This document shows, in pieces, positions 6,646 through 33,420 of a stretch of DNA of 64,000 nt (position 1 is its first letter; every line of letters begins with the position of its first letter). Source of the DNA: Minisyncoccota bacterium (lineage in GTDB: Bacteria; Patescibacteriota; Minisyncoccia; Phycocordibacterales; Phycocordibacteraceae); assembly GCA_035627595.1 (NCBI GenBank), contig DASPLK010000002.1:224481-288480 (forward strand), given 5' to 3'. Below the pieces are notes generated by a model, which was not told where the DNA came from, made no database searches, and saw only the letters and a program-made list of their open reading frames with translations. Both the position numbers and the translations under genes were made by a program.

Positions 6646-7188
6646 ATGCTACATCTGAACCGTAAGGGGGGCGTGGTCCTCGCGGCCCTCGCCGCTCTGT
6701 CCACTTCGGCCTGTCTGTCGACTCCGGGATACGACTCTGCGCCGATGGCGGTCCACGCCATCGTCCACAACCCGGACGTCAACGGCGGCCGTCCGTCGCC
6801 CGAAGCAATCGATGCGATCAACCGCTACGCGGCCAGCTGCTACCAGCAACTCGAGTCCCAGGTCCGCGGCCAGTTCGAGTCGGGCCTCCGGTCCGCCGCC
6901 GACTATGGCGTCGCGGGTGCGATCGGCGGCGGCCTCGGCCTCGCCGGCGGCTCCACCGGCTTCGAAGGTGTCGATCCTGCCAGCTACGGCCAGTACGGCG
7001 CCATCGCCGGTGCCGCACAGGGCGCCGCGAGCGGATTCGTCAACGGCCAGGTGACCGGGAGCTACTCGTTCGCCGCCGCCCGTGGCGAGTGCGTGAACGA
7101 CTTCTGGAGCGACGAAAAGGATTCGCGTCCCGAGTATCGGGGCACGCATCCGGTCACGCTGCTGAACGGCCGCTCCGGATCGAACTGA
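6646..7188 (+). CDS. Glycine-zipper (SlyB/Pcp/17-kDa-antigen-like) putative lipoprotein, encoded in a high-GC, GC3-rich foreign-looking cassette
   Basis: Signal peptide plus LSTSAC lipobox-like cysteine. Gly-zipper YGVAGAIGGGLGLAGGSTG...GAIAGAAQGAASG. Codons almost all end in G/C (about 68% GC versus about 54% in flanking tgt and FKBP genes). Confidence 0.6.
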   Translation: MLHLNRKGGVVLAALAALSTSACLSTPGYDSAPMAVHAIVHNPDVNGGRPSPEAIDAINRYAASCYQQLESQVRGQFESGLRSAADYGVAGAIGGGLGLAGGSTGFEGVDPASYGQYGAIAGAAQGAASGFVNGQVTGSYSFAAARGECVNDFWSDEKDSRPEYRGTHPVTLLNGRSGSN

Positions 7189-7230
7189 TCTTCGGCACAA
7201 CACAACCAGGCGTTTCGTAATAGAAACGCA

Positions 7231-20756: not shown

Positions 20757-21026
20757 ATGGAACATCTTTCGGAACTTGAACTCAGACATCGGCTCAGCGA
20801 GGCCGAGGCGCTTGTCGAAAAAGGTGCGCGCTATGCGCACTACAAACACCCAGAGCAGTCGTACTCTGTCATTGGCTTTGCGATCCGTGAGGACTCCCAG
20901 GACGTCTGTGTTATCTACGAAGCCGAGTATGGCGAAACGATTCCGTTCATACGGACGCTTGCAAGTTTTGTGGAGAGCGTTGAGGTAGACGGAGTAAGCG
21001 TTCCTCGCTTCTCGCGCCTCCCCTAG
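20757..21026 (+). CDS. DUF1653 domain protein
   Basis: RYAHYKHPEQSYSVIGFAIREDSQDVCVIYEAEYGETIPFIRTLASFVESVEVDGVSVPRF matches the DUF1653 pattern (YxHYK...YxV...VxY...RP...F...V). RBS AGGATAAAGGA. Confidence 0.65.
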   Translation: MEHLSELELRHRLSEAEALVEKGARYAHYKHPEQSYSVIGFAIREDSQDVCVIYEAEYGETIPFIRTLASFVESVEVDGVSVPRFSRLP

Positions 21027-22474
21027 TCAAGTACGTACGCTATATCGGCCTCAGCACCTTCAAGTCGCGCGATAAGCTCATCATGCTCGCGTGCAGTGAG
21101 TACACGCACACTCTTTCCATTTCTCGAGTCTAAAAGATACCGCGCAAGTATCTTGTAGGTATCATAGTCGAATGCTTGGCTTGGCTCTACCAGCGGACTG
21201 TAGTCTTCGCCATCATATCGGTAGCATCCAGCAAGTATCCAATTGTCTATAAGGAAGACTGTGCCGGCACTTTCCGATTCTGCCTCGGTTATTAGGACAG
21301 GGCCTCGGTACGGCCAGGTACGCAGCTTGCGCGCCTTAAACGCCTCCTCTATGCGTGCGTTATGCACTTGGGCTGATGCTTTCCCAAGACATGCGCCGTC
21401 GCACTGTCCGAGCTGGCGCGCGAAGCATGCTGTCTTGGCTTCTTCAATGCCAAGAAGTTTGTGGCAGATGCCATACTCCTTCGCAAGAACGCGAAGCTTG
21501 GCCTTGCCCTGTGTCGTCGTGCGAAATACAGCAAGGACATCCTCGCCCGGGCTCTCCGCATCCGCACGTTCAAGCGCCACGTGCGCATATCCGTCCTCAA
21601 GCCTTTTCCTTGCGATAACAAGTGTCTTTCGCTTCCTCAGCGCTCGGTTATACAAAGGCTGCTGCTTCTTAATGAGCGATGCTTCCAAAATGAGGGCGGA
21701 GAGTTCTCCCGAGGTACGCACAGCGCTTACAGACCGCGCATCATCCGTGATCCTCTTCCCTTGCATGTCGGTGCGCGCAAAATGAGAGCGGGCGCGGCTT
21801 CTCACATGTTTAGACTTCCCTACATACAGAAGCTCCTCATCTGGACCATAAAAGAGATACACGCCTGCGGAATCAGGAAGCGTAGAAAGTGTTTCCTTAG
21901 CCGGAAAACGGGTTGCGCGCCCCGTACGCACGCGATGTACCGCATCAGCAAGCCGGGCTTCAGGCGTATGCATGGCAGCATCCTGCATGAAGTCCCATAC
22001 CGCCTCAGCGTCTGGGAGCGCGCGGTGCCTTATCGGGGCGGTAAGTCCATGTCGTGCAATGACCGCATCAAGACTGTGCCCTCGCGCGTCTGGATACAGT
22101 GCTCGAGATAGCGCGACCGTGCACAAGCGCTCAGGCGCAAATGGCATGTCCAAGCGCTTGAACTCGTGCTGCATGAAGTTGAAATCGAACGCGGCGTTAT
22201 GCGCGACGAAGACTGCATCTTTAAGGAGCTCCTCGACTTGGAGCGCGACGTCCTCGAATTGCGGTGCTCGGGCGACATCCTCCTCGCGTATGGTTGTAAA
22301 GCTCTGTATAGAAGGTGGGATACGCGTACCGGGATTAAGGAGTGTAGAGAATCTCTCCACGACTCTACCGTGCTCGACGCGGATGATACCTATGTCCATG
22401 ACACGGGAATACGGCGGACGCATTCCGGTTGTCTCAGTGTCGATGATGGAAAAAACTTCTGGGTACGCCTTCAT
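21023..22474 (-). CDS. DnaQ-like 3'-5' exonuclease fused to GIY-YIG (UvrC/Cho-like) nuclease domain
   Basis: Exo I FSIIDTETTGM. Exo II/III region VFVAHNAAFDFNFM...H. GIY-YIG GVYLFYGPDEELLYVGKSKHVRSRARSHF. 20 nt downstream of the Y-family polymerase gene. Confidence 0.75.
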   Translation of the reverse strand: MKAYPEVFSIIDTETTGMRPPYSRVMDIGIIRVEHGRVVERFSTLLNPGTRIPPSIQSFTTIREEDVARAPQFEDVALQVEELLKDAVFVAHNAAFDFNFMQHEFKRLDMPFAPERLCTVALSRALYPDARGHSLDAVIARHGLTAPIRHRALPDAEAVWDFMQDAAMHTPEARLADAVHRVRTGRATRFPAKETLSTLPDSAGVYLFYGPDEELLYVGKSKHVRSRARSHFARTDMQGKRITDDARSVSAVRTSGELSALILEASLIKKQQPLYNRALRKRKTLVIARKRLEDGYAHVALERADAESPGEDVLAVFRTTTQGKAKLRVLAKEYGICHKLLGIEEAKTACFARQLGQCDGACLGKASAQVHNARIEEAFKARKLRTWPYRGPVLITEAESESAGTVFLIDNWILAGCYRYDGEDYSPLVEPSQAFDYDTYKILARYLLDSRNGKSVRVLTAREHDELIARLEGAEADIAYVLD

Positions 22475-22494
22475 ACAAGAACAAGGGACGCGAA

Positions 22495-23781
22495 TTATCG
22501 CACTTTTCCCAAAAACGGGATATCGATCGTCTTCTTGCGTGCCTCTATCGGCATGCGCGCGTGGCGGGTGCCGCGGCTCTTGAGGGAATCTTCTCGCGCT
22601 TGCACGGCAGTGAGGCTTGAGGCGAGAAACACCGTATGCCGTCCGTAGCGACGGTTCAGTCGGTCGATGGCCTCAAGCTTCTTTTCAGACTTGGTATTCG
22701 CCGCTTCTTGCGTACCGAAGAGATCGCGAGTCATTCCTTCCTCTATGACAAGAGAGCGGAGCGTGATGCCACTTGCCCGATAGAGCACCATTGGGTCGTA
22801 TACCTCATCAAATTCAGCGGCGATAAGCCGCAGCAGTTCCGCCGGATCATCGAGCGCGACCGGAAGCGTAAGCTGGCGGCCGTAGTACGTAAACTCCTGA
22901 GTCTTGAGGTAAAACGAAAGTGCCTTGGCTCGCACATGATGCCTCCTGGCTTTTACACAGGCAGCTTCCACGTTCTTCGAGAGCTCCGCATATATGACCT
23001 CCCGTTCGCGGGTTGGTCGGAACGTGTGCGTCTTCATAATAGAGCCGATACGATGGTTTGAAGTATTCGAGAGCGGCTTCACGAAGTGTCCGTTCAGTTC
23101 TGCCCAGATCTCCCGAAGTGGCTTCTCAAAGCGATTCTCGGAAAGCCATGCGTCGGTTTGCTGCGCATACTCAAGGGCGCCCGTTATCCCGAGGCGCTCA
23201 AGCCGAAGACTCGATGTGCCTCCAAGTCCCCATATACTGCCGGCACGCAGCGTCCCGAGGTAGTCCGCTATCTGTTCTCTTGGAATTGCGGTGAGCCCGG
23301 CAGGCTTTCTATACTTCGAAGCAACTTTTGCCAAAGTTTTATTGGGAGCAAGTCCGACTCCGAATGTGACGCCGAGCTCTTCTTCAAGCCGTGCCTTGAT
23401 GAGAAGTGCGATGCGCTCGTACGACATGCCGAAGCGGGCATCGAGTCCCGTTATCTCCGCAAAGCATTCGTCGATACTGTATTCCTCGACGATAGGTGTG
23501 AATGAGCGGACGATGGAATACATTCTGCGTGCATAGATAGAGTACGCCGTGTAGTTGCCCGGCACGATGACGGCTTCCGGACAGGTGAGCTTGATTTCTC
23601 TCATGTTCATGCCGCGCGAGACGCCTCGAGCCTTGGCCTCGTATGAGATAGAAGTCGCTGCTCCACGTTCTGCACCGGTTACCACCGGCTTCCCTTTAAG
23701 CGTATGGTTAAGAACCTGCTCTATGGACGCGAAGAACGCATCGCCGTCGAAGTGGAGTATGGCGCGTGGATATGGGTTCAT
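22495..23781 (-). CDS. Y-family DNA polymerase (UmuC/DinB-like, catalytic residues intact)
   Basis: ILHFDGDAFFASIE (Asp pair) and YSIDECFAEITG (Asp-Glu). KGKPVVTGAERGAATSISYEAKARGVSRGM. 428 aa. Start overlaps the lexA stop (ATGA). Confidence 0.85.
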   Translation of the reverse strand: MNPYPRAILHFDGDAFFASIEQVLNHTLKGKPVVTGAERGAATSISYEAKARGVSRGMNMREIKLTCPEAVIVPGNYTAYSIYARRMYSIVRSFTPIVEEYSIDECFAEITGLDARFGMSYERIALLIKARLEEELGVTFGVGLAPNKTLAKVASKYRKPAGLTAIPREQIADYLGTLRAGSIWGLGGTSSLRLERLGITGALEYAQQTDAWLSENRFEKPLREIWAELNGHFVKPLSNTSNHRIGSIMKTHTFRPTREREVIYAELSKNVEAACVKARRHHVRAKALSFYLKTQEFTYYGRQLTLPVALDDPAELLRLIAAEFDEVYDPMVLYRASGITLRSLVIEEGMTRDLFGTQEAANTKSEKKLEAIDRLNRRYGRHTVFLASSLTAVQAREDSLKSRGTRHARMPIEARKKTIDIPFLGKVR

Positions 23782-24344
23782 ACATACTTGCGAAAAGTTG
23801 CGGTCACGACCCCAATAATCTCTCCTTCCTTTGGGTAGATGTCCGGGTACTTCTCATTCGCTGCCTCAAGATAATAGGTGGCACCTCTTTTCCTTAAGTA
23901 CTTGAGCGTATATCCATCCTCGGTCAGAGCGACCACGATCTGACCTGGCTTGTGATCGTGAGTTCGCTCGAAGACGACCATGTCGCCATTGTGTATGCCG
24001 GCGTCCTCCATGGAATCACCCTCTACCTCGAGCAGGTAGCTCGCTTCGGGGCGCCGTATAAGGTATTCACCTATCGAAATGGTATCTGCGAGCTCTTCTT
24101 CTGCGGGGGCCGCGAAGCCTGCGCGAATGTGTCCGACGAGTGGTAGCTCGTGGAGGGCGGCGGCAGGCACGAGTCGACCGGTCCGATCCTTATCAGCTAC
24201 ACCCGCGGCAATTAGCTTTTGGACCACGTAGTGCGCAGAGCTTCTCGAAGAGAGCCCGCAGAGCTCCATGACCTCAGTGATAGAGGGCATGCGCTTATTC
24301 GCGCGGTAGAACTTCAGGATGCTGCTCTTGTACGCCTCGTTCAT
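23778..24344 (-). CDS. lexA: LexA-type repressor (HTH + S24 peptidase)
   Basis: N-terminal wHTH. C-terminal S24 domain LEVEGDSMEDAGIHNGDMVVFERT...GQIVVAL...TLKYLRK (Ser/Lys dyad context). Perfect GAAC-N4-GTTC box 17 nt upstream. Confidence 0.8.
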   Translation of the reverse strand: MNEAYKSSILKFYRANKRMPSITEVMELCGLSSRSSAHYVVQKLIAAGVADKDRTGRLVPAAALHELPLVGHIRAGFAAPAEEELADTISIGEYLIRRPEASYLLEVEGDSMEDAGIHNGDMVVFERTHDHKPGQIVVALTEDGYTLKYLRKRGATYYLEAANEKYPDIYPKEGEIIGVVTATFRKYV

Positions 24345-24360
24345 CAGGTATAAGTATATT

Positions 24361-24374
24361 CGAACAATTGTTCG
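24361..24374. promoter_or_regulatory. LexA operator (Gram-positive/Cheo-type SOS box) CGAACAATTGTTCG
   Basis: Perfect palindrome GAAC-AATT-GTTC, seen directly. Lies in the divergent intergenic region between lexA (ATG at 24342-24344) and the GFA-family gene (ATG 24428). Confidence 0.6.
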
Positions 24375-24427
24375 ATGGTCAACAGTGTCTTCCCCAGGTC
24401 CCGCATCGCCTGCTACTATACGTATCC

Positions 24428-24778
24428 ATGACGACCTATACCGGCGGATGCCATTGCGGGAAAGTGCGCTACGAAGTTGATGCGGAAATCTCCTCCGTTA
24501 TCAGCTGTAACTGTTCGCACTGCAGCATGAAGGGACTGCTGCTCACCTTCGTTCCTATCGACTCGTTCCGCCTCCTTTCAGGCGAGGATAGCCTCACAGA
24601 GTACCGTTTCAACAAGAAGGTTATTGAGCATGTTTTCTGCAAGGAGTGTGGTGTACAGCCCTTCGCATACGGCGTAGACAAGGACGGTAACCGTATGGCG
24701 ACCATAAACATCCGCTGTCTCGATGGCGTTAATATCGAAGAGATTCCGGCGACCGTTTTCGATGGGCGTTCCTACTGA
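24428..24778 (+). CDS. GFA/CENP-V family protein (glutathione-dependent formaldehyde-activating enzyme-like, Zn-binding Cys motifs)
   Basis: GGCHCGKVRYEV...CNCSHCSMKG...HVFCKECG is the GFA Cys pattern. Start at ATG 24428. The track ORF starts at an upstream TTG. Confidence 0.75.
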   Translation: MTTYTGGCHCGKVRYEVDAEISSVISCNCSHCSMKGLLLTFVPIDSFRLLSGEDSLTEYRFNKKVIEHVFCKECGVQPFAYGVDKDGNRMATINIRCLDGVNIEEIPATVFDGRSY

Positions 24779-24820
24779 CATTCATCCCCTCTTTATCCGT
24801 CTACCTCTAAGTACCTACCT

Positions 24821-25189
24821 ATGACCCAAGCAAACAAGACCCGAATCATCGTCATCGCGCTCGTCATCGCCGTACTGGCGGTGTTCGCTTACGCTATTTA
24901 TTACAATTCAACCAAGGAAGTAGCGGCGCCAAGCCCGCACGAGGAGATCAATCAGCGGGCAGACGCAATTGAAAACTATGTTCGTGCGCGCCTTGCAGAG
25001 CTTTCACCGGTTGCGCCTACCATGGGCGGCACGTTCTACGTTACCCGCATTCGTCTTCTGGACGGTGAAGGTACCGTCAACTACGAGGATGGCCACATGG
25101 CATACGTCGCTGACTTCACGTACACCATCACTGAGGACAATCGTAACGTAGAGGTAACTTCGTTCACGCTACGCGAAGACGCTCGGTAG
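24821..25189 (+). CDS. Hypothetical membrane-anchored protein (122 aa)
   Basis: N-terminal TM (IIVIALVIAVLAVFAYAIYY). No recognised domain. Confidence 0.45.
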   Translation: MTQANKTRIIVIALVIAVLAVFAYAIYYNSTKEVAAPSPHEEINQRADAIENYVRARLAELSPVAPTMGGTFYVTRIRLLDGEGTVNYEDGHMAYVADFTYTITEDNRNVEVTSFTLREDAR

Positions 25190-25223
25190 CGTATACTTAG
25201 CCGCAATGGATAGCGGCTTTCCC

Positions 25224-25916
25224 ATGCGCATAAACAAGTACCTGTCTCAAAAGGGCTACGCAACTAGGCGTGGTGCGGATGAGCTTGTTCAAAAGGGCCA
25301 GGTATTCATAAACGGCCGCAAGGCAGTACTTGGCGACAAGGTGGAGGAGTCTGATGAGGTTACCGTAAAGACACGCGGGAAGAAGCATTATCGGTACTAC
25401 GCGTTTAATAAGCCCAAGGGCATCGTCACGCACTCCGCTCAGGGAGACGACCAGGATATTGAGGACGCTATAAAGCGCACACCCGAACTCAGAGGTGTGT
25501 ACCCCATTGGTCGCCTTGATAAGGAGTCCTACGGGCTAGTTATTCTTACCGATGATGGGCGCGTTACCGATCGCCTACTTAATCCAGAGCACTCACACGA
25601 GAAGGAGTACACCGTGAAGGTTTCAAACCGTTTGCGTTCTAACTTCAAGGAGCGCATGGAAGCGGGCGTCGATATCGAGGGCTACATGACCAAGCCCGCC
25701 AGAGTCCGTATCAATGGCGAAACATCATTCACGATCACCCTTACCGAGGGAAAGAAGCACCAGATCCGCCGCATGGTAGCGGCCATGTTCAACGAGGTGC
25801 GCGAACTAAAGCGTACGCGCGTTATGAACATACGGCTTGGCAAGCTCCCATCCGGGAGCTATCGCGCCATAGAAGGCGAAGAGCTTGCTGAGTTCCTTAG
25901 CTCGATCGGGTTGTAA
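25224..25916 (+). CDS. Pseudouridine synthase, RsuA/RluB family (S4 domain + catalytic domain)
   Basis: S4: MRINKYLSQKGYATRRGADELVQKGQVFINGR. Catalytic YPIGRLDKESYGLVILTDDGRVTDRL (Asp in RLDKES). Start at the second ATG. Confidence 0.8.
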   Translation: MRINKYLSQKGYATRRGADELVQKGQVFINGRKAVLGDKVEESDEVTVKTRGKKHYRYYAFNKPKGIVTHSAQGDDQDIEDAIKRTPELRGVYPIGRLDKESYGLVILTDDGRVTDRLLNPEHSHEKEYTVKVSNRLRSNFKERMEAGVDIEGYMTKPARVRINGETSFTITLTEGKKHQIRRMVAAMFNEVRELKRTRVMNIRLGKLPSGSYRAIEGEELAEFLSSIGL

Positions 25917-26154
25917 TCAAGGCAAGCTTCTCCTTTCGCGAGAGCCGCTTCAGCGCCATTTCCCGTATGAGCGCAGAGCTCTGGGACGGATGGAGCTCCA
26001 TATACTGCAGCGTCACGGGACGCCTGCTTTTGGTATAGCGAGCCCCTTTGGGTGATTCGTTATGTTCCTTGATTCGGCGCTCTACATCTGCGGTGGCGCC
26101 AATGTAGAGAGTCTGGTCCGCGCACTGAGCGATGTACACGTACCACTGACCCAT
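25897..26154 (-). CDS. Small GIY-YIG nuclease superfamily protein (UPF0213-like)
   Basis: WYVYIAQCADQTLYIGATADVERRIKEHN is the GIY-YIG core. 85 aa. Confidence 0.65.
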   Translation of the reverse strand: MGQWYVYIAQCADQTLYIGATADVERRIKEHNESPKGARYTKSRRPVTLQYMELHPSQSSALIREMALKRLSRKEKLALITTRSS

Positions 26155-26155
26155 G

Positions 26156-27637
26156 CTACTTCGCGAGGTCGAGAACCTCATCGATCCTTACTTCCTGGAC
26201 GAACTCCGGTACGTGTGAGACTAGCACCATTGCGCCCTCGTACTGATCGAGCGCCTTTGCGATCACCGGTAGGTGCCTGAAGTTGATGTGGTTGGTTGGC
26301 TCATCGAGGATAAGGAGGCCAGGACGGAGCAGTACGAGCTTCGCAAACGCGACCAGGCCTTTCTGCCCCTCAGAGAGCATGCCAATTTTCTTGTTTATCG
26401 TATCTGCCGTAATGAGAAATCCTGCGGCAGTTGCGCGCATCTGCTCCTCGTTCGGCTTCTCCATCGCCGCCAGCAATTCCTCGCGCGCAGTCTTATCAAA
26501 GTCAAGCGTCGAGAAGTCTTGGCGATAGTAGCCGACCTTAACACCCTTTTGTATAGCGGCTCCCTGGGCCGTGCCGCTTGCGATTGACTCGAGCAAGGTC
26601 GTCTTGCCGATGCCGTTTGGACCCTTCAGCTGAAGGTGCGAGTGGCGCTTTAGGACAATGTTCGCCTTTTTCTCCTTAGGCACGTGTTTCTTGGGATCCA
26701 TCACCGAAAGTGAGGTAATGGTGAGTATCTCGCCAATGATGTCTTCCTGCGCTGGGATAGTGAACGGACGAATGGTCTTATCCTCTTTACGGACATCAAC
26801 CTTCTCTTCTTCCATCTCTTCGATCTCTGTACGCATCTTCTTTGCCACAAGACGCATTTTGCCGCCCTTTTGCGCGAAGAAGTTAGCCTTGTCCTTGTTG
26901 TCCTGAATCTTCTTAGCCAGCTGCGCATTCTTACGATTCTCGCGCTCGATACGGGCAGTTATTTCTTTGAGAAGGTCGTAGTAGTTGCCGACGTACTGCT
27001 CTACCTGCCGGGTATGCACATCAAGATACAAAACGCCGTCGGTGAAGGAATTAAGGAACTCAGCATCATGCGAAATGACGAGACAGGTCTTTTGATAGTC
27101 TTTGAGAAACGCGGTCAGGTGCTCGATGCCTGCGTGATCCAGGTTGTTGGTTGGCTCGTCTAGAAGAAGAAGGTCCGGATCCTGTATGAGCGCCGAAGCC
27201 AAGAGGAGACGCGCCTGCTGGCCGCCGGAGAATGCGCCCACGAGTTTATCGTGCGAAGCATGCAGATTCACCACATCAAGGATGGCATCTATCTTCGGAT
27301 CAATATCGTACACGGTCTCCTTGAAGCGACTCTGGAAGAAGTCACGCACCGTCATGGTGCGCTCCTCAGGACGCACCACCTGGTGCGAGAGAGCGATGGA
27401 GGTGCGGGGCGAAAATACAATCTTGCCATCCTCAGGCTTGAGCGCATCAGTGATGAGCTTAAATATGGTGGTCTTGCCCGCACCGTTCTGTCCCATGACC
27501 GTCACTTTTGAGCCACGCTTAACAGAGAAGTTCACCCCGTCCAGGATGGGGTGATTATGACCGTACCCAAAGGATACGTCCTCGAATCGCACGACCGCCT
27601 CGCGGGGCGCGCTGTTTGTAGGTTTCTGACTAGCCAC
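26156..27637 (-). CDS. ABC-F family ATPase (two ABC domains, no TMD)
   Basis: Two Walker A motifs (GQNGAGKTT, GPNGIGKTT). Two signature motifs (FSGGQQARL, LSEGQKGLV). Inter-domain linker with charged coiled region. Confidence 0.85.
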   Translation of the reverse strand: MASQKPTNSAPREAVVRFEDVSFGYGHNHPILDGVNFSVKRGSKVTVMGQNGAGKTTIFKLITDALKPEDGKIVFSPRTSIALSHQVVRPEERTMTVRDFFQSRFKETVYDIDPKIDAILDVVNLHASHDKLVGAFSGGQQARLLLASALIQDPDLLLLDEPTNNLDHAGIEHLTAFLKDYQKTCLVISHDAEFLNSFTDGVLYLDVHTRQVEQYVGNYYDLLKEITARIERENRKNAQLAKKIQDNKDKANFFAQKGGKMRLVAKKMRTEIEEMEEEKVDVRKEDKTIRPFTIPAQEDIIGEILTITSLSVMDPKKHVPKEKKANIVLKRHSHLQLKGPNGIGKTTLLESIASGTAQGAAIQKGVKVGYYRQDFSTLDFDKTAREELLAAMEKPNEEQMRATAAGFLITADTINKKIGMLSEGQKGLVAFAKLVLLRPGLLILDEPTNHINFRHLPVIAKALDQYEGAMVLVSHVPEFVQEVRIDEVLDLAK

Positions 27638-27721
27638 GTTACTAGTACCCTACCTCAGCTTTGCCGTTCTCCCAAGCCCGTTCATTGCCGACTCACTCCT
27701 TCTCCCCCATACTTTTCGTAT

Positions 27722-28282
27722 ATGAGAACCTCAACCATCGTGCTCGCCATCCTGGCGCTCTTGGGCATAATCGTAGCGGTATACGCATACACCAAGGACG
27801 ATCCGGAATCGGTCGTTGCAGAACCGACATCATTTGCGGAGTGTGCAGTTCTATATCCAGTCATGGAAAGTTACCCGCGCCAGTGCAACACACCGTCGGG
27901 TCTCCACTTTACTGAGGAGGTGCCCGCACCAGTCGTGCCCGTACCTTCGGAGGCCGCTATTGAGGGCCTTATCGAAGTTGACCGCCCCGTCATCGACCAA
28001 GCAGTCGCGTCGCCGCTCAATATAAGCGGCAGGGCGCGCGGCTATTGGTTCTTCGAGGCAACGTTCCCGATAGAGCTGCAGGACGCTGCAGGCAATGTAA
28101 TTGCGGAGCACTACGCAGAGGCAGAAGGCGAATGGATGACGGAGGAGTTCGTACCGTACACCGCTTCCCTCACCTATCCTGCGCAGCCTGCTGGCTCTGA
28201 AGGTTCCCTGGTACTCAGGCGTTCGAATGCCTCAGGAGACCCGGAACGTGATCAGGAACTGGTCATCCCCGTTAGTTTCTAA
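27722..28282 (+). CDS. Secreted protein with Gmad2-like immunoglobulin-like domain
   Basis: Signal/anchor MRTSTIVLAILALLGIIVAVYAY. GYWFFEATFPIELQDAAGNVIAEHYAEAEGEWMTEEFVPY resembles the Gmad2 Ig-like domain. Track N-terminal extension rejected. Confidence 0.5.
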   Translation: MRTSTIVLAILALLGIIVAVYAYTKDDPESVVAEPTSFAECAVLYPVMESYPRQCNTPSGLHFTEEVPAPVVPVPSEAAIEGLIEVDRPVIDQAVASPLNISGRARGYWFFEATFPIELQDAAGNVIAEHYAEAEGEWMTEEFVPYTASLTYPAQPAGSEGSLVLRRSNASGDPERDQELVIPVSF

Positions 28283-31031: not shown

Positions 31032-31070
31032 TAGCGATGAAGGTATATGGAGGCAAGCGCATATGAAGAA

Positions 31071-31096
31071 GCCCCGTCCGATCTCCCGGACGGGGC
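31071..31096 (-). terminator. Hairpin gccccgtccg-atctcc-cggacggggc downstream of the high-GC LuxR-like gene
   Basis: 10-bp perfect stem. On the minus strand it is followed by TTCTTCAT. Confidence 0.4.
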
Positions 31097-31112
31097 TCAA
31101 GTCTCAACGGTC

Positions 31113-32546
31113 CTAGGACCGCTTAACGAACAGCACTGCGCTCACGCAGGCGAAGACCGGTTCGAAGGAGACGACGTGGTCGACTCGCTCGATCCGGTAC
31201 CCTTCCGCATATGCGGCCGCCTGGTCCTCCGCAAAGGACGCAGAGCTGCTCCAGAGAACGCGTACGCTCCGTATGTCCTGCGGATTCCGCAGAGCAGAGC
31301 CGGAAGGCCCGGTCGTGGATATTTGGACAGGAGGAGCGGGAAGCTCTTCCGATCCCGGCTCCTCGATCGGCGGTGGCACAGGCGCGGCCGGTTCAGGCTC
31401 GAGTTGCGGCATTGCCGATTCCAGAACCGTCGCTTCCGCTGGAGTTGCCGGCTCGAGGGCCAGCGTCTCCTGCACCACCTCGTCGTTCGCCGCAGTCAGC
31501 ACCTCCGCATTCTGGCCAGCTCTGAAGATCTGCCAGGCACGGATGAGGAATTTGCGCTCCTCGGTGCCACGAATACGAGCGCTCGCAGAGTTGCCGGCAG
31601 GGACCTCGAACTGCTCGCGCAGCCGCTTGATCATCTGCGACATATTCGCTTCAGTGGTGTCGAGCGCATGGGCTGCCTGGGCATACTCACCGTACTTTGC
31701 GAGCGCATCGAGGAACTCGATGGCCCGCTTGGTCACCTTGTCCGCCGAGACGAACGCGGCGATACGCTTGGCAAGCGCCGCAAGCTCTGGCTCTGCTTCC
31801 GTCGGAGACGGTGCAGCAACCAGAACCAGTGGTTGCGGGGTCGTGTTGTCCACGACTTCCGCCGCCACCTGGTCGCCCGAAGCATGCGCTTCGATGATAA
31901 GCGCGCGAACGCGTTCATCATCGAACGGGATACGGATGCCGAGCGACTTGCAGAGCTTCTGCAGGTGACTCTCGACAGTCGATCGATCCGCGCCGCCGTC
32001 TTTTGCATGGAGTAGTTCGACCATGTGTTCGACGGTATGGCCCGCAACGACCCAGCTCAGGAACTGCCGCTTCCACTCCGTGAGATCAGGAAAGCGAGCG
32101 GCCACATCCTGAGGAGTCGGCAGCGGGCTATCACTGACCATGGAGACCACTGGAGCTGGAGCTGGAGCTTGGGGCTCCGAAGCGGGCTCCGGCGCGCCAA
32201 GACACGGTGAAGTAAGTGCCTTGATGAGAAACTGTTCCGTCTCTGGTTCCGGACGCCACCCTTCCCGCTCATAGATGCGATCGATGACGGCTGCCGCCTG
32301 ACGCTTCTGCAGCGACGAAAGACTGAGATTGATGCCGAGCCGTTTGTAGAGCGTATTGAGGCGCTCTTCAAGATGCGCTCGGTTAACCCTCGCCATGATA
32401 CAAAGCTTGGCGTCGTCATCCGAGATGCACGAGAGGAGGTCCGAGTCGCTGCCGCTCAGTTTGGCGACACGTGTACGGATACTCTTCAGGTTCAGGCTCG
32501 GGGGAAATCGCCCGCCCGCCGGGCTCGTCGGTTGCAGTGCATGCAT
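31113..32546 (-). CDS. High-GC, Pro/Ala-rich protein with two to three LuxR/GerE-type HTH-like modules (putative transcriptional regulator), foreign-looking
   Basis: LTEWKRQFLSWVVAGHTVEHMVELLH...STVESHLQKLCKSLGI is LuxR-type HTH-like. Weaker copies at residues about 20-75 and about 260-320. About 63% GC versus about 53% for adjacent mntP and ROK genes. Confidence 0.5.
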   Translation of the reverse strand: MHALQPTSPAGGRFPPSLNLKSIRTRVAKLSGSDSDLLSCISDDDAKLCIMARVNRAHLEERLNTLYKRLGINLSLSSLQKRQAAAVIDRIYEREGWRPEPETEQFLIKALTSPCLGAPEPASEPQAPAPAPVVSMVSDSPLPTPQDVAARFPDLTEWKRQFLSWVVAGHTVEHMVELLHAKDGGADRSTVESHLQKLCKSLGIRIPFDDERVRALIIEAHASGDQVAAEVVDNTTPQPLVLVAAPSPTEAEPELAALAKRIAAFVSADKVTKRAIEFLDALAKYGEYAQAAHALDTTEANMSQMIKRLREQFEVPAGNSASARIRGTEERKFLIRAWQIFRAGQNAEVLTAANDEVVQETLALEPATPAEATVLESAMPQLEPEPAAPVPPPIEEPGSEELPAPPVQISTTGPSGSALRNPQDIRSVRVLWSSSASFAEDQAAAYAEGYRIERVDHVVSFEPVFACVSAVLFVKRS

Positions 32547-32637
32547 TACAGTGCCCTTTCGCGTTTGGGTTTCGGTTGTATGGGACTATCCCATTTTGGA
32601 TTATGCTTAGTTTCTTAAGAAATACAAGAATGCACTT

Positions 32638-33420
32638 TTACGACGCCAATGAGAGAGCGCCTATGAGCCCTGCTGCATCCCCAAGCGTCGCCGGCACTAG
32701 TTCAGGCATCGACTGGCCATCTGCAATACGCGTGAGCTCTATTGCGATTCGATGAATAGAGAAACCCGGCTCCTTTAAAATCATCGCGCCTCCTAGAACA
32801 ACAATATCTGGAGACCATGTGCGCACGAGGTTATAGATACCCACCGCAAGTGCACTGGTTCGATCGTTATATACCGAGAGTGGAATGTCTTTTGGCGACA
32901 GACATGTCTCACGTGCAAGCGCTGCGCCGCTTACCAAGTCCTCAAGCGTACGCCCTGTTGCAAAATCTATGATCTGTTTGCCCGGCTCAAGTCCGTGCGC
33001 AGACGGCTGCAGCGCACCATCCACAACAAGGGTGCCGCCTGCACCGGTTCCGACCGTAAGGTACGCGACGATCTGATGGTTCTTCCCTGCGCCCTCGAGC
33101 GCTTCGCCAAGCCCCTCCACATCTGCATCGTTCATAAGTATCGCTGGAGCCTTGAACGCATCTGCAGCCATACTCTGGAAATTGGACTTCTCCCATCCTG
33201 GGAGGTTCGGGGCGCCTGTTATGGCGCCGTTATCGACGGCGCCGGCGACACCACCAGAGACCATGTCTATGCTCTGACCACCCACGAATTCGCGCATAAA
33301 TGTTATTGCATCCTCAGGACTCTTAGGTGTTGGTACCTTGCGCACCTCGCCCATCACACCCTCCTCGTTGATGGAGAGTCGCATATTTGTTCCGCCGATA
33401 TCAAAAAGGAGAACGTTCAT
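32638..33420 (-). CDS. ROK-family sugar kinase (glucokinase-like)
   Basis: N-terminal LLFDIGGTNMRL phosphate-1 motif, ...VGTGAGGTLVVDG. 260 aa. Confidence 0.7.
   Translation of the reverse strand: MNVLLFDIGGTNMRLSINEEGVMGEVRKVPTPKSPEDAITFMREFVGGQSIDMVSGGVAGAVDNGAITGAPNLPGWEKSNFQSMAADAFKAPAILMNDADVEGLGEALEGAGKNHQIVAYLTVGTGAGGTLVVDGALQPSAHGLEPGKQIIDFATGRTLEDLVSGAALARETCLSPKDIPLSVYNDRTSALAVGIYNLVRTWSPDIVVLGGAMILKEPGFSIHRIAIELTRIADGQSMPELVPATLGDAAGLIGALSLAS

Follow-up and report, generated by a model that had tools for sequence, protein, structure and literature searches.

The LuxR/FixJ/NarL regulators (Pfam GerE, PF00196), which include GerE itself and the LuxR-type 'solos', carry one copy of their helix-turn-helix (HTH) domain at the C-terminus, and the LysR-type transcriptional regulators (LTTRs) combine an N-terminal HTH with an effector domain of about 200 amino acids (aa) (LysR_substrate, PF03466). 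Several HTH units tethered in one chain are found in the eukaryotic Myb R1R2R3 proteins, in the bipartite paired and Tc3 domains and in the domain strings of sigma factors. Patescibacteria encode few regulators. Here, we compare with these systems a 477-aa protein with three HTH-like modules, the multi-HTH protein, which is encoded in a 64-kb stretch (64,000 nucleotides; the window) of contig DASPLK010000002.1 from a Minisyncoccota bacterium. The protein is a variation on known HTH proteins: its HTH repeats are real, and the foreign origin proposed in a preliminary description of this DNA is unsupported. The explanation that we favor, and regard as reasonably probable, is that of a native three-HTH protein of the Patescibacteria, acting as a transcription regulator or as an architectural DNA-binding protein in a mode that we infer. 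The gene is located as follows.

31113..32546, minus strand: open reading frame (ORF) of the multi-HTH protein, 477 aa, from the ORF call; full-length orthologs have 38–43% identity

This is the sole ORF inside the interval covered by the preliminary description (31071–32640). NCBI labels the product 'LysR family transcriptional regulator', and the identical protein is known from one genome only in the public databases, encoded on a 360-kb contig.

An AlphaFold model of the 477-aa protein was built with a nine-sequence alignment; prediction from the single sequence was uninformative, with a mean predicted local distance difference test (pLDDT) score of 42. In the nine-sequence model, the pLDDT is about 90 for residues 20–110, 140–225 and 250–345, 76–89 across most of residues 420–477, and below 50 for residues 114–139, 227–250 and 349–418. 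The predicted order is three helical modules on three disordered linkers, followed by a small β-α-β-β end domain.

32211..32504, minus strand: module 1 (aa 15–112), a six-helix divergent HTH-like domain, from a pLDDT of about 90 and the hhalign match to module 2
32127..32210, minus strand: linker 1 (aa 113–140), Pro/Ala/Glu-rich and predicted to be disordered (pLDDT below 50; 68% Pro, Ala, Glu, Ser and Thr), 28–40 aa long among orthologs
31869..32126, minus strand: module 2 (aa 141–226), acidic and with a longer turn (pLDDT 80–92), the 'LuxR-type HTH' of the preliminary description
31797..31868, minus strand: linker 2 (aa 227–250), predicted to be disordered from pLDDT, composition and ortholog alignment
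31509..31796, minus strand: module 3 (aa 251–346), a basic HTH, from Pfam HTH_1 and profile matches to RhlR, GerE and NarL
31293..31508, minus strand: linker 3 (aa 347–418), acidic (net charge −13) and predicted to be disordered from pLDDT, 72–121 aa long among orthologs
31116..31292, minus strand: C-terminal 59-aa β-α-β-β domain (aa 419–477), pLDDT mostly 76–89, with 59% mean identity among orthologs

The end domain, with its fixed length of 59 aa, is the most conserved part (mean ortholog identity 59%, compared with 52, 42 and 41% for modules 1, 2 and 3). The linkers are 20–29% identical and variable in length, and Pro, Ala, Glu, Ser and Thr make up 58–68% of residues 113–140, 227–250 and 347–418. 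The isoelectric point (pI) of module 3 is mostly 9–10.6 across the members of the family, that of module 2 is 4.7–8, and that of the whole protein is 5.2.

The modules were compared with each other by profile. With hhalign, modules 1 and 2 align in register with a probability of 91% (E-value 1e-6), as do modules 2 and 3 with a probability of 86% (E-value 5e-6); for modules 1 and 3 the probability is 49% (E-value 1.7e-4). Pairwise BLASTP among the three gives no similarity, and the homology is visible only by profile–profile comparison. At the DNA level, a 31-nucleotide (nt) repeat of 74% identity connects modules 1 and 2 through their LxxLxKxLGI stretches. The modelled helix order of all three modules fits a four-helix layout in which helices 2 and 3 form the HTH and the fourth helix lies behind it. 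The preliminary description had proposed repeated HTH modules on Pro/Ala-rich linkers, and this part of it agrees with both the hhalign E-values and the linker composition.

Module 3 is the only unit that can be detected from a single sequence. Residues 274–316 score 30.9 bits against Pfam HTH_1 (PF00126; cut-off 26.6) over profile positions 2–44 of 60, and the rest of the protein, searched as the whole sequence and as four pieces, matches no other Pfam domain, GerE and LysR_substrate included. Against solved structures, the module 3 profile matches RhlR (E-value 2.1e-5) and GerE (1.5e-4), followed by DesR and NarL (2e-5 to 7.5e-4 for RhlR, GerE and NarL), and it matches a LysR DNA-binding domain at 0.009. 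When 15 module 3 sequences were run against Pfam, HTH_1 was scored by six and GerE by four, with a best GerE E-value of 1.3e-5. Foldseek with the full model shows LuxR-type domains (VpsT, VraR and FixJ) over 74–78 columns with a root-mean-square deviation (RMSD) of 2.2–3.8 Å and a probability of 0.93–1.0, and LysR DNA-binding domains over 85–90 columns with an RMSD of 5–6 Å. 'LuxR/GerE-like' is therefore a fair label at the profile level. Together, these comparisons point to three divergent, mutually homologous HTH units of the LuxR/GerE-to-LysR type, with module 3 the likeliest of them to bind DNA.

Several results weigh against this assignment. All Foldseek E-values are above 0.1, because the query was a floppy full-length multi-domain model, and the output is silent on which module was aligned. 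Module 2 is acidic, has no Pfam match in six orthologs and matches only FixJ in the PDB, at an E-value of 0.43; this is the module that had been called convincing, and it is the least demonstrable of the three. Module 1 gives only weak, non-significant PDB matches, all of the NarL/FixJ type. Lastly, the C-terminal domain has no match in Pfam and no assignable fold, a PDB profile search giving a weak match only.

The C-terminal domain profile produces a short match to residues 226–257 of maize cytokinin dehydrogenase 4 (E-value 0.003), probably by chance, in which the aligned motif is LLRxPxxxRxxRxLWSNxxxFxxDQ. The alignment of this domain returned zero proteins as the query of a word-indexed homolog search. 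The architecture of three modules and an end domain has no counterpart in the Pfam, NCBIfam, PHROGs or PADLOC libraries; the multi-HTH protein itself has no meaningful match in PHROGs or PADLOC, and a BFVD fold search gives only low-probability sigma and HTH matches. No paralog, whether of a module or of the end domain, is present in the window or in loci L001–L009.

We compared this architecture with that of the LuxR/FixJ/NarL group. The shared elements are an L(T/S)-x-helix, a G-x-T-helix, the turn, a recognition helix ending in K-x-LGI, and the fourth helix. However, the window protein itself scores no GerE match, and only its relatives and the module 3 profile do so. Three tandem copies on disordered tethers replace the one C-terminal copy of the known regulators, and no Response_reg, Autoind_bind or other N-terminal regulatory domain was found with Pfam and NCBIfam. 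The loops are also longer, since module 2 has an extended turn and module 3 an extended loop ahead of helix 4, and the chain ends in an extra conserved α/β domain.

The LTTRs resemble the protein in another way, since module 3 passes the HTH_1 cut-off and LysR DNA-binding domains are among the Foldseek matches. However, the LysR_substrate effector domain was not found in the whole sequence or its pieces at E-values up to 10, and the HTH lies in the middle of the protein, not at the N-terminus, followed by the 72-aa disordered linker and the 59-aa domain. Regarding the β-hairpin wing that comes after the recognition helix in LTTRs, with a linker helix behind it, the model, which was built from nine sequences only, lacks strands at residues 314–322 and places a long helix at residues 323–354. 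The protein does not belong to the LTTR family, and the public label is misleading, because only a 43-residue HTH matches and the effector domain is absent.

By analogy with Myb R1R2R3, paired, Tc3 and the sigma-factor strings, which share the arrangement of several HTH units per chain with flexible joints, the protein could read several half-sites. The linkers, however, are far longer here (24–72 aa) and disordered, and no more than one unit, of the three, seems able to bind DNA.

The family of the multi-HTH protein is small. An exhaustive phmmer search of 1.84 billion representative proteins identified only 13 relatives: five full-length orthologs (500–550 aa, 38–43% identity), four multi-domain proteins (P0007–P0009, with the same C-terminal domain and differing numbers of modules, and P0012) and four proteins of about 100 aa in which module 3 stands alone. 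Every contig examined that carries a relative, including a 674-kb JGI contig, looks to be of the small-genome Patescibacteria type, and the named relatives are all assigned to the 'Patescibacteria group' or 'Parcubacteria group', none being actinobacterial. Two distant members are named as NarL/FixJ family and CsgD family in JGI. In the word-indexed search, the whole protein retrieved only itself and a six-ortholog alignment retrieved two proteins, probably because the low-complexity linkers swamped these searches. Scanning with the ortholog alignment gave no locus in genome contigs or in viral contigs, and only the already known JGI contig in metagenome contigs. No publication bearing on the family turned up in a literature search.

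The standalone module 3 proteins are basic, and three of their genes lie on Parcubacteria-type contigs at L038 882–1193, L039 5001–5327 and L042 929–1243. These three share a context composed of a DUF1295 membrane protein, the standalone module 3 gene and an ABC-F-type double ABC ATPase. The distant member P0009 (L041 1–3276) is found near a Type ISP/MmeI-like restriction–modification gene and an HNH endonuclease gene.

The gene is flanked on the same strand by a ROK-family kinase gene (PF00480; 32638–33420) upstream and an MntP gene (PF02659; 30478–31020) downstream. Its flanking sequences suggest that it is transcribed alone, from a conserved promoter of its own to an intrinsic terminator. 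The 91-nt spacer on its 5′ side holds a promoter-like motif and an AAAGGG Shine–Dalgarno-like site, and a hairpin follows the stop codon.

32598..32627, minus strand: promoter-like TTGTAT-N16-CATAAT followed by CC (−35 at 32622–32627, −10 at 32600–32605), the single match in the window, with promoter function inferred
32554..32559, minus strand: Shine–Dalgarno-like AAAGGG, 7 nt before the ATG, kept in orthologs as GAAAGGG(G/A)
31061..31098, minus strand: intrinsic terminator formed by a GC-rich hairpin of 13 bp and the U-rich tail behind it, from stem search and folding, with equivalent hairpins after every ortholog

The upstream regions of seven distinct full-length orthologs were aligned. 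They share two unchanging blocks, TTG..TT and CATA.TCC, with 16 nt between them, and a GAAAGGG ribosome-binding site. The derived pattern, TTGNNT-N16-CATAMTCC, has one exact match in the window, at the multi-HTH gene, and one per ortholog locus, immediately ahead of the gene in every case. All seven full-length orthologs are preceded by it, as are, among the standalone module 3 genes, those of L038 and L042 exactly and that of L039 with one mismatch; these standalone genes played no part in deriving the pattern. No other match occurs on either strand in 494 kb of examined loci, and the two most divergent members (L040 and L041) lack the pattern in their upstream regions. The exact matches are located as follows.

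Window 32598–32627, minus strand: promoter motif of the multi-HTH gene
L002 8659–8688: promoter motif
L003 6772–6801: promoter motif
L005 9917–9946: promoter motif
L007 387–416: promoter motif
L008 740–769: promoter motif
L037 7907–7936: promoter motif
L038 835–864: promoter motif
L042 876–905: promoter motif

Because the promoter is so conserved while the proteins are only 35–40% identical, the pattern suggests a constrained regulatory input on the multi-HTH genes, and autoregulation through this promoter would be the obvious hypothesis. Nothing in the analysis overturns current understanding; its most intriguing point, and an unexpected one, is this conserved promoter.

The 5′ leader also contains a palindrome.

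32580..32594, no strand assigned: palindrome ATGGGATAGTCCCAT (z −2.1)

Examined as a possible RNA element or operator, the leader matches no Rfam family and has no consensus structure, and its hairpin reaches significance only in this genome.

At the 3′ end, the preliminary description had noted a terminator hairpin belonging to the gene itself, and the stem search agrees. Its core is a perfect 10-bp GC stem, GCCCCGTCCG/CGGACGGGGC, at 31071–31096, 15 bases past the stop codon, which is the single match in the window (0 expected by chance). The stem extends to 13 bp and folds at −28.1 kcal/mol (z −3.3), and UUCUUCAU comes next. All seven full-length orthologs end in a GC-rich hairpin and a T-run. 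The 10-nt stem GCCCCGTCCG is identical in the window and in L008 (about 2432–2457), and the corresponding stems in L037 (GCCCCGCCGG) and L005 (GCCCCCGACC) are similar in sequence. This likeness of the stems suggests that the 3′ ends of the ortholog genes are homologous too.

To place the gene within its genome, we compared its base composition with that of the other window genes. The GC content of the ORF is 0.619, and the mean of the 62 ORFs in the window is 0.546 ± 0.028; the MntP and ROK genes have values of 0.532 and about 0.55, respectively, and the sole ORF with a higher value lies at 6649–7203. The contrast with MntP and ROK in the preliminary description holds, and its figure of 63% for the ORF is too high. 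GC at third codon positions (GC3) is likewise raised, at 0.69 compared with 0.593 ± 0.054, which places the ORF third of 62 and inside the native range. When 40 trusted window genes supply the codon usage, the amino acids alone predict a GC of 0.580 for the multi-HTH gene and 0.547 on average; amino-acid composition thus explains about 3.3 points of the excess of 7.3, and codon choice about 4. Total GC is highest in the linkers, where GC3 is ordinary, and the GC3 excess is held by the folded domains. Among orthologs, GC follows that of the host (0.54–0.65) and lies 1–5.5 points above the neighbors, which makes high GC a family trait of the multi-HTH proteins. The raised GC would then be a by-product of an Ala/Pro/Glu/Arg-rich composition and a moderately GC3-rich codon choice, and not a sign of import. 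A small genome can show a local peak of GC without any DNA having been imported; in this case, disordered Ala/Pro/Glu-rich linkers and codon choice explain it.

The gene neighborhood was compared with that of the ortholog locus L005. Five genes of the L005 neighborhood recur at 21–38 kb in the window with 27–48% identity, namely those of a Cho-like nuclease, a LexA, a Gmad2 protein, a 114-aa protein and the ortholog itself, and this range is the same as for the multi-HTH protein. The shared neighborhood is conserved but rearranged. The Cho-like nuclease (RNase_T and GIY-YIG), the LexA-like S24 peptidase and Gmad2 occupy 21023–28282 in the window and 3017–5809 in L005, and their order and orientation differ. 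No flanking repeats, insertion scars, tRNA or integrase were found around the multi-HTH gene, and no plasmid or phage match was found for it. These features are consistent with a resident gene that was inherited vertically and belongs to a small family restricted to the Patescibacteria (Parcubacteria/Paceibacteria).

Some observations do not fit a resident gene so well. The adjacent genes vary: ROK and MntP here, and elsewhere a PG_binding_1 protein near the ortholog and, in most cases, a MazG-like gene after it. Among the GTDB genomes with ROK, the closest (47% identity) retains GH-PGI-ROK, followed by unrelated genes, with neither MntP nor a multi-HTH gene; since it rests on this 47%-identical genome, the comparison of whether mntP stands beside ROK in relatives shows neither insertion nor its absence. 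Codon choice also points the other way, with an observed GC3 of 0.689 and an expectation from amino acids of 0.583 (z about 2.8), and this excess is greater than in the orthologs, for which GC3 stays within about one standard deviation of the neighbors.

This last point bears on transfer or relocation within the Patescibacteria, in which the gene would have come from a higher-GC relative and retained a residual GC3 excess. We consider this unlikely. The corrected GC3 excess is above that of any ortholog, family members do occur in hosts with a GC of 0.58–0.63 (L002 and L007), and a self-contained unit of promoter, gene and terminator appears in varying immediate contexts; however, no sampled ortholog exceeds 43% identity and all are about equidistant, the neighboring genes are equally diverged (27–48%), the raw GC3 is within the native range with two native genes higher, and insertion scars are lacking.

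For the native three-HTH protein that we favor, the following mode of action can be proposed. The product would be cytoplasmic, and the basic module 3, which also exists alone as proteins of roughly 100 aa, would contact DNA. Modules 1 and 2 may add DNA or protein contacts, extending the reach of the protein or recruiting partners. The acidic disordered tethers would act as spacers, and linker 3 could in addition mask the basic module 3. The C-terminal domain could mediate self-association or dimerization, partner binding or signal reception. In this way the protein would regulate transcription or shape DNA, possibly at its own conserved promoter. With three tethered HTHs, a conserved C-terminal domain and a conserved promoter, the family is a reasonable candidate for a lineage-specific regulator.

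A more specific form of this proposal, which we put forward as a tentative and improbable one, is that the tethered HTH modules recognize two GCAT(T/A)C-like elements in the promoter of their own gene, TTGCATTC...GCATACTCC, with the C-terminal domain oligomerizing or sensing a signal. If so, the protein would be an autoregulated master or architectural DNA-binder in organisms with very few regulators, and the system in its simplest form would be the standalone module 3 proteins, driven by a promoter of the same kind.

The modules might instead be degenerate HTHs that do not bind DNA, so that the protein would serve as a protein-interaction scaffold or adaptor, in which flexible tethers join helical bundles derived from HTHs. 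Neither module 1 nor module 2 matches a known DNA-binding HTH significantly, the turn of the acidic module 2 is 6–7 residues longer than in GerE-type domains, and the low pI of the whole protein (5.2) would suit such a role. Module 3 makes it a quite unlikely one, however, since this unit is above the Pfam HTH_1 threshold, resembles solved DNA-binding domains at the profile level and has a basic pI in the majority of members, and its standalone forms resemble small DNA-binding proteins.

It is very unlikely that the protein is a highly divergent sigma-like or RNA-polymerase-associated factor, with modules joined by linkers as in sigma2-sigma3-sigma4, that autoregulates its own promoter as extracytoplasmic function (ECF) sigma factors do. 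A family-specific promoter motif does stand ahead of the members, Foldseek lists ECF and phage sigma factors (at low probability and an RMSD of 23–29 Å), NCBIfam gives a weak SigX4 match over residues 270–358 (E-value 0.06), and a Sigma70_r4 protein adjoins one ortholog. However, neither Sigma70_r2 nor Sigma70_r4 was found in the protein with Pfam at E-values up to 10, and the three modules are mutually homologous, unlike sigma2 and sigma4. The motif resembles a housekeeping-type −35/−10 pair and not the ECF pair, and the standalone 100-aa members with the same promoter cannot be sigma factors. The adjoining protein, of 679 aa, is encoded directly upstream of the ortholog in one lineage (L003 4721–6760, L004 743–2782) and does not match the module profiles.

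Recent import of a cassette from a high-GC Gram-positive (actinobacterial) donor into the site between mntP and the ROK gene, as the preliminary description had supposed from the raised GC and GC3, is extremely improbable even with a promoter and terminator of its own and neighbors unlike those of the orthologs: of the 13 relatives found among 1.84 billion representative proteins, those examined or named are all of Patescibacteria type and none of them is actinobacterial, ortholog GC follows the host and about half of the excess reflects amino acids, the wider neighborhood, promoter and terminator are common to the orthologs, signs of mobility and plasmid or phage matches are missing, and homologs of the same composition occur in related genomes, though not at the identical locus.

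The other high-GC spot of the window lies at 6646–7203 (GC 0.685), has long ORFs on both strands and is presumably the first high-GC cassette of the preliminary description. Its plus-strand ORF of 180 aa is Gly/Ala-rich and begins with the signal-peptide or lipobox-like sequence LAALAALSTSAC.

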